Shown here: piece after piece, positions 60,617 to 64,000 of the stretch
How positions within the stretch are numbered: position 1 is the first letter of the stretch
How the letters are laid out: each line of letters begins with the position of its first letter
Origin: Shigella phage SHFML-26
Sequence record: KX130862
DNA length: 64,000 nucleotides
Reading direction: 5' to 3' (one strand)
Made by a program: the position numbers and the translations under genes
The notes under the pieces: generated by a model
What the model saw: only the letters and a program-made list of their open reading frames with translations
Told to the model about the DNA's origin: nothing
Databases searched by the model: none

Positions 60617-60954
60617 CTAGTACTCAATCCTCGATTATAAGAATCTACTAAACGGTCAACCATTGAATGACAAGCGGCTTTATCTTTCTCCTCCGCAACT
60701 GAACATTCTAAGGTATTCCACTTTTTAGCATATCGTTTTAACAATGTATCATTTTTGTATCTGCTTGATTTATCTCTTTCTCCGTCTTTATATGCATATA
60801 TTAATTTCTGCGCAAATTCAGCTTGGCATGCTTTATTTTTCCCGCAATAATCCGCTGCAGTACGGTTTACATACTCTCTAATTTCAGTATATGATGTATC
60901 TGCTAACGCAGAAAATGAAATTAATCCTATACATAAAACCAAAATTTTAGTCAT
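60613..60954 (-). CDS. secreted protein (signal peptide)
   Basis: ORF track; N-terminal signal sequence. Confidence 0.45.
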   Translation of the reverse strand: MTKILVLCIGLISFSALADTSYTEIREYVNRTAADYCGKNKACQAEFAQKLIYAYKDGERDKSSRYKNDTLLKRYAKKWNTLECSVAEEKDKAACHSMVDRLVDSYNRGLSTR

Positions 60955-61321
60955 TTACTATTTCCAAAAGTTTATTATTTTTAAGGTAATTAGCCTTTTC
61001 TAGGACTTCAGAAGCATATTTAGAACCTGCTTTAACATTCCATCCCGAATTATAAGAGGATATTGCTTTTCTTATATCGCCCTTATGTATATTTAACCAA
61101 TAAGAAAGTTCAATGTACGCCCAGGAAGCTGAATTGGACCGTTTATTCAACATTCTTTTTATTTCAGCATCGGTCATATTATAACCAAGTTCCTTGACTC
61201 TCGCTCGCATAGTAGGCAAATAATTTTGGAACATTCCATAGGCATGATGCTTTGGTTTAGATTTTAAATTAACTCCGGCAGAGCTTTCTTGCCACAAAAT
61301 AGCAGCCATTATATGACCCAA
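60947..61321 (-). CDS. lytic-transglycosylase-like (SLT domain) protein
   Basis: ES...AYGMFQ-type SLT motif. Confidence 0.5.
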   Translation of the reverse strand: MGHIMAAILWQESSAGVNLKSKPKHHAYGMFQNYLPTMRARVKELGYNMTDAEIKRMLNKRSNSASWAYIELSYWLNIHKGDIRKAISSYNSGWNVKAGSKYASEVLEKANYLKNNKLLEIVND

Positions 61322-61491
61322 TCCGCTCTTATGGATGTTTTTGTGTGTTTTATATTTTCCATCCTTAGAAAATTGTTCCCGAATTGATACGCGTAACGCA
61401 TGTTATCGAGTTGGACATTACTGAAAGTATGCTCGGAGCTATGTGCCATCATTGAAATGGCCAATAGACCAGCGAGTAGTGCTTTTCTCAT
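61309..61491 (-). CDS. small secreted protein
   Basis: ORF track; signal-like N-terminus. Confidence 0.35.
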   Translation of the reverse strand: MRKALLAGLLAISMMAHSSEHTFSNVQLDNMRYAYQFGNNFLRMENIKHTKTSIRADWVI

Positions 61492-61498
61492 GCTTACC

Positions 61499-61960
61499 TC
61501 ATTGAGTTTTAATTACTGCTTTAGAAGCCTTTCCTGGTAAACGACGACTGTTGATAATTGCCATCCTGCATTGAAGTGACGGGTTTTTGAACTTCTCATT
61601 AGGCTTACAAACCGTAAATCCAAGCCAAAGATTTCCATCTGTGATTTCTAAACGTCCAGGACGATATTCAACCCCATCAATAAAATCCTCGTCAATGTCA
61701 GGACGCGGAGGCATACTCAGGAATTCATTAACTTCTAAAACATGGTCTTTTATTTTATGGAATAATTCAAAAACATATGTCTCATCAATCTCCCGTTGAA
61801 TTGCACGATCAAGAAGATGTTGAGAATATTTTAGATGAAACGATGAGACTCCTGCTGCTTTTGATGCCTCACGAATCTCATTGTTAATTTGACGAAACTC
61901 CGACTCAAAATGACGACGAAGCTTATTTCGACGGATAAAAACTTCTGTATTGATAGTCAT
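61499..61960 (-). CDS. regB: RegB endoribonuclease
   Basis: 153 aa; recognised RegB sequence; early promoter upstream. Confidence 0.8.
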   Translation of the reverse strand: MTINTEVFIRRNKLRRHFESEFRQINNEIREASKAAGVSSFHLKYSQHLLDRAIQREIDETYVFELFHKIKDHVLEVNEFLSMPPRPDIDEDFIDGVEYRPGRLEITDGNLWLGFTVCKPNEKFKNPSLQCRMAIINSRRLPGKASKAVIKTQ

Positions 61961-61987
61961 GTTGTTCTCCTCTTAACTGATAGAAAA

Positions 61988-62017
61988 ATTATACCACAGT
62001 CAAGAGGAAAAGTAAAC
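61988..62017 (-). promoter_or_regulatory. T4-type early promoter upstream of regB
   Basis: GTTTAC ... TATAAT. Confidence 0.55.
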
Positions 62018-62019
62018 AG

Positions 62020-62340
62020 TTATTCTTTAAATCTAATCAATTTATTCATAGACTTTGAAACTTCTGCACGAACCTCATGTAGATTTTTGAGCTGTTCAAG
62101 ACGCTGCGTATAGTAAGCAATTTCATCTTCTTCGAGACAGTCCTGTGAATCTTCTTTAAGATAACGTGCATAGTCCTGGAAAGCGTTACGGACTACTTCC
62201 TGGAAATCATCAAGACTTTGAATTTTCTTAGGAGCAACAGATACACGACGAGGGGCAGTATAATACTCATAACCAAACCCTGCGCTTAATTGAGCCATTA
62301 GTATTTTTCCTCTGGTTGGAACACTGCACGACAAGCCCAC
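62020..62340 (-). CDS. hypothetical protein (vs.3 position)
   Basis: ORF track. Confidence 0.45.
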
Positions 62341-62564
62341 ATACTGGATTCTTTGAGTTTCGTTTTAGCAATAGTTAACTGATCGAGGCTTTCGGCGTAA
62401 TTCTTCGCGAGTTCATCATCTTCACAGCTATCAAATGCTTCCCAAAATTCATCGTATAAAGCATCAAAGATAAGTCCTAAACGAACTTCAGCGTCTTTAA
62501 TAGCATTTACTTTACCGATTTTTTCGTCGGTATGTGGCTTATAACCTTTAATATCTTCAATCAT
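62298..62564 (-). CDS. hypothetical protein (vs.4 position; possible Acb2-like cyclic-nucleotide sponge)
   Basis: ORF track trimmed to MIEDIKGY; assignment by position only. Confidence 0.35.
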
Positions 62565-62778
62565 ATTTGACTTCCTCACCAGTACATAAATCGTATTCAA
62601 CTAAACGAATAGGTTCATGAATGCCATATCCCTGAACAGAAATTTCTGTAGTAGGATAAATTCCATTAATATCACCCATGTTCCATGCTTCGTTAAATTG
62701 CTGTTCGCCTGAATTACTAAACCATTCGGCGAAAGCATTTAGCACATCTTCAGAACCTTCAATAATTATCTTTGCCAT
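62557..62778 (-). CDS. hypothetical protein
   Basis: ORF track. Confidence 0.4.
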   Translation of the reverse strand: MAKIIIEGSEDVLNAFAEWFSNSGEQQFNEAWNMGDINGIYPTTEISVQGYGIHEPIRLVEYDLCTGEEVKYD

Positions 62779-63140
62779 TACAAACTCTCGGTAAAGGTAC
62801 GAGCGATAACATCGCGCTGCTGTTCCGGAGTCAGAGAGTTAAAGCGAACTGCATAACCGGATACACGGATGGTCAGCTGCGGATATTTTTCCGGATGCTT
62901 AACTGCATCTTCCAGAGTTTCACGACGCAGAACGTTAACGTTCAGGTGTTGACCACCTTCAATTTTAACTGTAGGCTGTTGCTCAATTTCAATTTCACGG
63001 GCATGCAAACCGTAGAAAATTTCTGGGTCTACAAAAGAGTCCTCTTTAAAGGTTTTAGAGACAATAATTCGTGCTTGAATACCATCTTCAAAATAAATAG
63101 TACCTTTATGTGTGCCTTCAAGAATTTGATATGCTTTCAT
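62778..63140 (-). CDS. autonomous glycyl-radical cofactor-like protein (GrcA/YfiD-like)
   Basis: C-terminal glycyl-radical motif [11 protein letters not shown]. Confidence 0.6.
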
Positions 63141-63147
63141 ATAAACC

Positions 63148-63528
63148 TCAATTAGAAAATAAATTTATCCAAGATTGTTCTTTAATTAAAAACGGCTCAG
63201 AATCATATGCCATTAAACTTTGCGTAATTAATCCTTTAAAAGGTCCATCAATAAATTCCATGGTAAAATATGGAATTTTATTCATTAGCCGTGCATTAGG
63301 AGCAGTGCACAAAACTCTGCATCCTTTGAATACGCCTTTTTGTAATTTGTATTGCTTAGGATAAAATTCGCTTAAAATGTTATTTTTTGCCAAAATTTCA
63401 AAATGATTCACCAATTTATTTTTAATAGTTTTTGGCGAAAAATAAAGATATTCGAAAAGCTGAGTGTCTGTCATCATTGCATTCCGATTACGAAAAACTG
63501 CGGACGAGTAATACCACCAATGCAACAT
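63148..63528 (-). CDS. hypothetical protein
   Basis: ORF track. Confidence 0.4.
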
Positions 63529-63977
63529 TTACTATTACAGCAGTGTTGCACAGTTTCAATATGAATATCGTAAATTTTATCCATATCAGGAGATTTAACA
63601 GGCTCATCGATTATATACAAAATTCGCGAAAGAGATAAACCTCTGAACTTGCTTCCTTTATTACCGATAAAACTACGGACAGAATCAGTAAATAAGCGGA
63701 ATCGAATATCATCACTAGAATAACGAGAAAATTCTTTTTTAATGTGGCCTGCAGAAATTTTAGCGTAAGCTGAAGTATTAGAAAGAACAATAACTGTTCC
63801 ACCGTCATACAGCCAATTAGCAGCAAAGTTAGTCACAGCAGTTGATTTACCAGATTGGCGTCCACCATCTAGTCGAAGTGTACAATATTGTTTAAGCAAG
63901 TCTTCAAATGGTGGGGTATAATCGTTTTTACAAATTTCTTCTACTCTAGCATCAGAATGGTGTGTAAAAGCATTCAT
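63474..63977 (-). CDS. P-loop-containing hypothetical protein
   Basis: Walker A-like GGRQSGKST. Confidence 0.45.
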   Translation of the reverse strand: MNAFTHHSDARVEEICKNDYTPPFEDLLKQYCTLRLDGGRQSGKSTAVTNFAANWLYDGGTVIVLSNTSAYAKISAGHIKKEFSRYSSDDIRFRLFTDSVRSFIGNKGSKFRGLSLSRILYIIDEPVKSPDMDKIYDIHIETVQHCCNSKCCIGGITRPQFFVIGMQ

Positions 63978-64000
63978 CAGGGATAGATAAGGACCAGTTA

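Follow-up and report, generated by a model that had tools for sequence, protein, structure and literature searches.

The gene, structure and mechanism of vs.4/acb2 from phage T4 are already known, and the gene described here chiefly adds a correct annotation. The ligands of T4 Acb2 include 3',3'-cGAMP (Kd about 30-85 nM), other dinucleotides of CBASS and cGAS, and 2',3'-c-di-AMP. On a weakened type II CBASS strain (Cap2 mutant), T4 without vs.4 plates about 50-fold less well, and T4 Acb2 is toxic when expressed together with Panoptes optSE. The sponge action of T4 Acb2 lifts the signalling threshold of CBASS effectors such as CapV, as set out by Jenson et al. (PMC10097602). According to the same authors, the cGAMP site is built by two protomers; Y8 and F82 provide pi-stacking, Y8, H11, K23 and R79 make polar contacts, S74N disturbs the interactions with cGAMP and T12I removes a helix cap. 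The hexamer interface is described there as L29, A66, A73, A77 and, more mildly, F33, and interface mutations, including that of A73, abolished both oligomerisation and cGAMP binding; the amino acid introduced at A73 is given in the figures only (PMC10097602). In the published T4 hexamer, the N- and C-terminal tails close the ligand pocket.

The ligand range and the cost of this sponge have been defined in further work. T4 Acb2 was found to bind cyclic dinucleotides (3',3'-cGAMP with a Kd of about 84 nM), and not cA3 or cAAG, an exclusion attributed to a smaller three-fold pocket that is occluded by Y37, A57, L60, D61 and T64 (Cao et al., PMC10312549). T4 Acb2 is also both necessary and sufficient to trigger Panoptes, a system that guards a decoy pool of 2',3'-c-di-AMP; the protein binds this dinucleotide with a Kd of about 62 nM, depletion of the pool triggers the system, and loss-of-function mutants of acb2 escape it (PMC12657218).

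Most public records of vs.4 carry the label 'hypothetical protein'. Within the 64,000-nt stretch of DNA analysed here (hereafter the window), we identified a gene that we read, with a probability of roughly 0.93, as the vs.4/acb2 of a Tequatrovirus (T4-like phage), encoding a cyclic-dinucleotide sponge of the Acb2 type.

The vs.4 reading frame and its neighbourhood

The vs.4/acb2 coding sequence, assigned to the cyclic-dinucleotide sponge, occupies positions 62298..62564 on the minus strand (267 nt; 88 aa plus a TAA stop), running from an ATG at 62562-62564 to the TAA at 62298-62300. It encodes an acidic protein (20 D+E, 12 K+R) with a computed pI of 4.56 and mass of 10.2 kDa. An earlier note on this DNA, made from the letters alone, had placed an acidic protein of ~88 aa at 62298-62564, which is exact in every particular, and had left out the strand. 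A Shine-Dalgarno motif, GAGG, lies at 62574-62577 on the minus strand, 9 nt 5' of the ATG and within the 3' end of vs.5, and sequence comparison found the same motif in T4, Sf25 and T2. The stop of vs.5 overlaps the start of vs.4 by 8 nt (ATGATTGA), and the stop of vs.4 overlaps the start of vs.3 (TAATG); genes packed as tightly as this are typical of co-translated operons in phages, and vs.5 and vs.4 are probably translationally coupled.

Conservation rules out a chance open reading frame as the explanation of vs.4. A tblastn search with the product returned 1,230 phage records, 1,226 of them with at least 80% coverage, and relative to T4 the gene shows 11 synonymous and 6 non-synonymous codon changes. 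We dropped a longer reading of 100 aa, initiated at TTG (62298-62600) and proposed by the ORF finder, since in the homologues, T4 included, the protein starts with MIEDIKGY or with one to two residues ahead of it; the position of the GAGG motif ahead of the ATG of the 88-aa form also disfavours it. A 30-aa frame nested within vs.4 on the minus strand in another phase (62375-62467) lacks support, and no frame of at least 30 aa was found on the plus strand over the vs.4 region.

Over its final 5 kb the window is collinear with T4, in the order tk, tk.1-tk.4, vs, vs.1, regB and vs.3-vs.8. On a single strand, vs.6 and vs.5 come before vs.4, and vs.3 and regB after it; the T4 RefSeq and the annotation of Sf25 agree on this arrangement. 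The 5' neighbour of vs.4 is vs.5 (62557..62778, minus strand, 73 aa, PHROG 1986) and its 3' neighbour is vs.3 (62020..62298, minus strand, 92 aa), the product of which is identical in amino acids to T4 Vs.3. The endoribonuclease gene regB follows at 61499..61960 on the minus strand (Pfam REGB_T4, 231 bits; T4 annotation), and vs.6 has a glycyl-radical domain by Pfam. The earlier note had reached the vs.4 slot by counting genes onwards from regB, and the collinearity of regB, vs.3 and vs.4 with T4 bears out that count. Aligned to T4 DNA, vs.3 through vs.5 show 98% mean identity, and the 2.6 kb around vs.4 are 97% identical to many Tequatrovirus genomes, with 814 records matching.

Evidently, vs.4 is transcribed with the rest of the vs operon. 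In a scan of positions 61400-64000 for sigma-70 promoters and terminators, sites were not above those in shuffled sequence, and none was found directly upstream of vs.4. The only strong promoter-like site in this interval lies at 61988-62016 on the minus strand (TTTACT, a 17-nt spacer and a TG-extended TATAAT; 10/12), in the 59 nt that separate vs.3 from regB, ahead of the latter. This sigma-70-like site is identical in T4, and we take it to be the known promoter of regB.

We additionally observed differences in the reading frames around this segment. In T4, vs.1 encodes 181 aa; in the window it is split into a 60-aa frame (61309-61491) and a 124-aa frame (60947-61321), both on the minus strand, by a 1-bp deletion near 61380, where a G run reads GGG instead of the GGGG of T4 and Sf25; the split reflects either a sequencing error in the homopolymer or a true pseudogene. 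In one related phage record, vs.1 is annotated as transglycosylase SLT domain-containing. In vs.5 it is the T4 RefSeq (sequence L001, NC_000866, 4846-5058) that is the outlier, with a 1-bp deletion that cuts the product to 58 aa, the tail of which is out of frame, and leaves the gene 36 nt short of vs.4; the window, in contrast, has the overlap of vs.5 with vs.4, and the 73-aa form is kept in about 985 phage records. The frame in the vs.8 position (63474-63977, minus strand) encodes 167 aa, and is shorter than T4 vs.8 (219 aa); the 126-aa frame in the vs.7 position starts within its C-terminal end, with 55 nt in common. It contains a Walker-A-like motif, GGRQSGKST, and a weak match to Pfam AAA_14 (E 0.0096), below the cut-off. 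A 'terminase large subunit' label that one related record carries in the 2.6-kb stretch is taken to mean this frame.

Family membership, predicted fold and ligand pocket

The window protein and T4 Vs.4 (NP_049728) are identical at 82/88 positions (93%), in an alignment free of gaps, and the same 82/88 was obtained against the chain of PDB 7UQ2, in which T4 Vs.4 is complexed with cGAMP (E 1.2e-52). Pfam PF24729 (Acb2/Tad1 hairpin) matches it with 67.1 bits over a gathering cut-off of 27 bits (E 1.6e-18). It also matches PHROG 717 (E 4e-31), the family by which Jenson et al. defined Vs.4 homologues (PMC10097602). A large protein database yielded 136 cluster representatives of Vs.4, nearly all with PF24729, and the records found by tblastn come mostly from phages of Escherichia, Klebsiella, Shigella, Enterobacter and Yersinia. 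NCBIfam holds no model for the Vs.4 protein, and PHROGs describes PHROG 717 as of 'unknown function'; these blanks are annotation gaps and not evidence against membership of the Acb2 family. The exact 88-aa sequence occurs in no record of the phage collection, where the best matches, Sf25 among them, are 98.9% identical, and this is trivial allelic novelty only.

We modelled the window Vs.4 monomer with AlphaFold2 from an alignment of 54 sequences (mean pLDDT 88, pTM 0.72). The model contains helices at residues 13-45 and 50-81 with a short tip between them, and N- and C-terminal tails of lower confidence, so that the protomer is predicted to be an antiparallel hairpin of two helices and ~90 aa, as in the Acb2 family. 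Foldseek searches of the PDB with this model placed the 7UQ2 chains at the top (E 2.5e-9, TM 0.78) and the Acb2 of Pseudomonas phage PaMx33 second (8H2J/8H2X; probability 1.0, TM about 0.70), followed by generic helical hairpins with E > 0.7. In sequence, PaMx33 Acb2 (8H2J/8IXZ) aligns weakly with the window protein (E about 0.09), with the pocket Tyr and Lys in register.

The residues of the cyclic-dinucleotide pocket were conserved throughout. Window Vs.4 has Y8, H11, T12, K23, S74, R79 and F82, and across 54 cluster representatives Y8, H11, K23, A66, S74, R79 and F82 are invariant. In the earlier note the protein had been put forward, by position only, as a candidate Acb2-like anti-CBASS sponge, with a BLASTP comparison to T4 Vs.4/Acb2 and a structure prediction as the checks and an absence of similarity as the outcome that would count against it. 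The opposite was found: the comparison of the two proteins gave the 82 identities in 88, the threshold of PF24729 was passed, PHROG 717 was matched, and the predicted structure retrieved the Acb2 fold, both as 7UQ2 and as PaMx33 Acb2, with its pocket residues in place.

The residues that set the ligand class are likewise those of T4. Y37, A57, L60, D61 and T64, which block the cyclic-trinucleotide pocket in T4 Acb2, are all identical in window Vs.4. PaMx33 Acb2 also binds cyclic trinucleotides, via R67 and T74 (PMC10312549), where the window protein and T4 have D61 and T68. Thus, of the Arg and Thr that line the enlarged three-fold pocket of the dual-pocket subclass, window Vs.4 has the Thr, with Asp61 standing at the position of the Arg. 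On its sequence, window Vs.4 would be sorted with the dinucleotide-only T4 subclass, and not with the dual-pocket PaMx33/JBD67 subclass, because D61 and the occluding residues are identical to those of T4, which does not bind cA3; it should not bind cyclic trinucleotides. Since both the cGAMP-contact and the trinucleotide-blocking residues are kept, window Vs.4 is expected to function as T4 Acb2 does.

Divergence from T4 and the A73S substitution

Six changes separate window Vs.4 from T4 (E13D, L44F, N46S, C50D, F52L and A73S), four of them within residues 44-52; they are conservative exchanges or lie in a loop. D13 is the majority residue among the cluster representatives of the Vs.4 family. 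Residues 44-52 form the hairpin tip in the predicted model, and fall in the middle third of the family alignment (34-65), which is hypervariable. The combination F44/S46/D50/L52 is a common Tequatrovirus allele, found in Sf25, in a cluster of 373 members (P0001) and in 178 phage records at 95-99% identity, and the T4-type tip is that of the 298 phage records at 90-95% identity. Among Tequatroviruses the hairpin tip appears to exist in two main forms, L44/N46/C50/F52 and F44/S46/D50/L52.

This divergence is local. DNA identity to T4 is 92.5% in vs.4, with 6 amino acid changes, against 98-99% in regB, vs.3 and vs.6, with 0-2. The gene vs.4 is thus a hot spot of local divergence, which allelic exchange or arms-race selection would fit equally well; the raised divergence is compatible with selection to evade Panoptes and, equally, with simple exchange between T4-like phages.

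Among the hexamer-interface residues, L29, F33, A66 and A77 are unchanged in window Vs.4 and A73 is replaced by Ser, which is also the sole difference from the nearest public relative, Sf25. This raises the reading that the window acb2 is attenuated or inactive, A73S weakening the hexamer and hence dinucleotide binding, either in a decaying copy or in a variant that escapes a guard system such as Panoptes. We consider this improbable. Although A73 is reported by Jenson et al. as a hexamerisation residue the mutation of which abolishes binding (PMC10097602), the exchange of Ala for Ser adds a hydroxyl only, and the open reading frame is intact, with the ligand contacts and the other interface residues unaltered. 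Ala is kept at position 73 in 48/54 cluster representatives, which would favour attenuation, as would the status of A73S as the only change from the closest public homologue; yet Ser is present in 4/53 other representatives, all from full-length phage genomes, and in the IMG/VR contig UViG_2974787500 (Tequatrovirus, 96.8% identical to the window protein), where it stands on the different, T4-type allelic background. Exact-pattern scans of IMG/VR found S73 in 1 contig and A73 in 2 contigs, too few for allele frequencies. Loss-of-function mutants of acb2 do evade Panoptes (PMC12657218), and a milder form of the same idea is that A73S, alone or with the F44/S46/D50/L52 tip, tunes hexamer stability or affinity in such a way that CBASS is still blunted and less of the Panoptes decoy is drawn. 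We hold this to be a long shot; if true, tuning of the A73S type would be a natural counter-move in the arms race between sponge and guard. Our preferred reading is of a functional sponge, in which A73S is expected to be tolerated because Ser is a minimal change from Ala and recurs naturally at this position.

A shift in ligand range, such that window Vs.4 binds the Thoeris signal 3'cADPR or cyclic trinucleotides, is scarcely credible. Some members of the Acb2 family do block type I Thoeris rather than CBASS (PMC12393519), but the Thoeris-binding Acb2_43 relies on additional beta-strands at both termini and on other pocket residues (PMC12393519), which are absent from window Vs.4 and from its model. 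The hypervariability of residues 34-65 in the family, and the clustering of 4/6 differences from T4 at 44-52, might be taken as signs of such a shift; these four residues, however, belong to the tip of the modelled hairpin, far along the chain from the dinucleotide pocket with its N- and C-terminal residues, and both the dinucleotide pocket and the occluders of the trinucleotide pocket are identical to those of T4.

Expected action and comparison with known sponges

For the preferred reading, a dinucleotide sponge of the T4 type, we infer from homology to T4 Vs.4 that the protein forms a hexamer, binds its ligands and takes effect in vivo. The 10-kDa hairpin would assemble into an interlocked hexamer with three pockets, each between two protomers, and each pocket would clamp one cyclic dinucleotide, with Y8 and F82 stacking on it and Y8, H11, K23 and R79 making polar contacts. 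The sponge would sequester the signal without cleaving it, so that the host CBASS would need more of it before its effector fires, and this raised threshold would allow the phage to complete replication. Like T4 Acb2, window Vs.4 would also draw down the decoy dinucleotide pool, and it probably triggers the Panoptes guard system as well.

The window phage can accordingly be labelled as a carrier of an Acb2 anti-CBASS sponge. The acb2 label predicts reduced sensitivity to CBASS of the cGAMP type and sensitivity to guard systems of the Panoptes type, and such an annotation is useful for the choice of therapeutic phages and for the interpretation of host range. A73S, at the hexamer interface, is the only allele-specific point of note in the window vs.4.

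Two public records of vs.4 relatives deserve comment. In the T2 RefSeq (sequence L003, NC_054931, about 1719-1740), vs.4 has lost 2 bp at codon 7/8, where GGGTTATAAA has become GGG--ATAAA, and the annotated product starts MKILRD... and is without the ligand-stacking Y8; T2 may be without a functional Acb2, or its record may contain an error. A Vs.4 98.9% identical to the window protein is found in PV654520.1, 'Pseudomonas phage vB_PSGBLB0006', with P. aeruginosa as the host; the presence of a T4-like coliphage gene under a Pseudomonas label suggests a mislabelled host or contamination.

Window Vs.4 can be set beside four described sponges. Tad1 (Thoeris anti-defence 1) is a different protein, a signal sponge for gcADPR; by the name of PF24729 it has a helical hairpin domain in common with window Vs.4. 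PaMx33 Acb2 (8H2J, 8H2X, 8IXZ; Huiting et al. 2023) shares the fold and the family, its Y11 and K26 corresponding to Y8 and K23 in the window, but is only about 22% identical. T4 Vs.4 has the same length of 88 aa, the same slot between vs.5 and vs.3, and the same cGAMP-contact and trinucleotide-blocking residues. Closest of all is gp246 of Shigella phage Sf25, annotated as 'similar to phage T4 Vs.4', which is identical at 87/88 positions (98.9%) and shares both the tip allele and the vs.5 overlap, but has A73 where window Vs.4 has S73.
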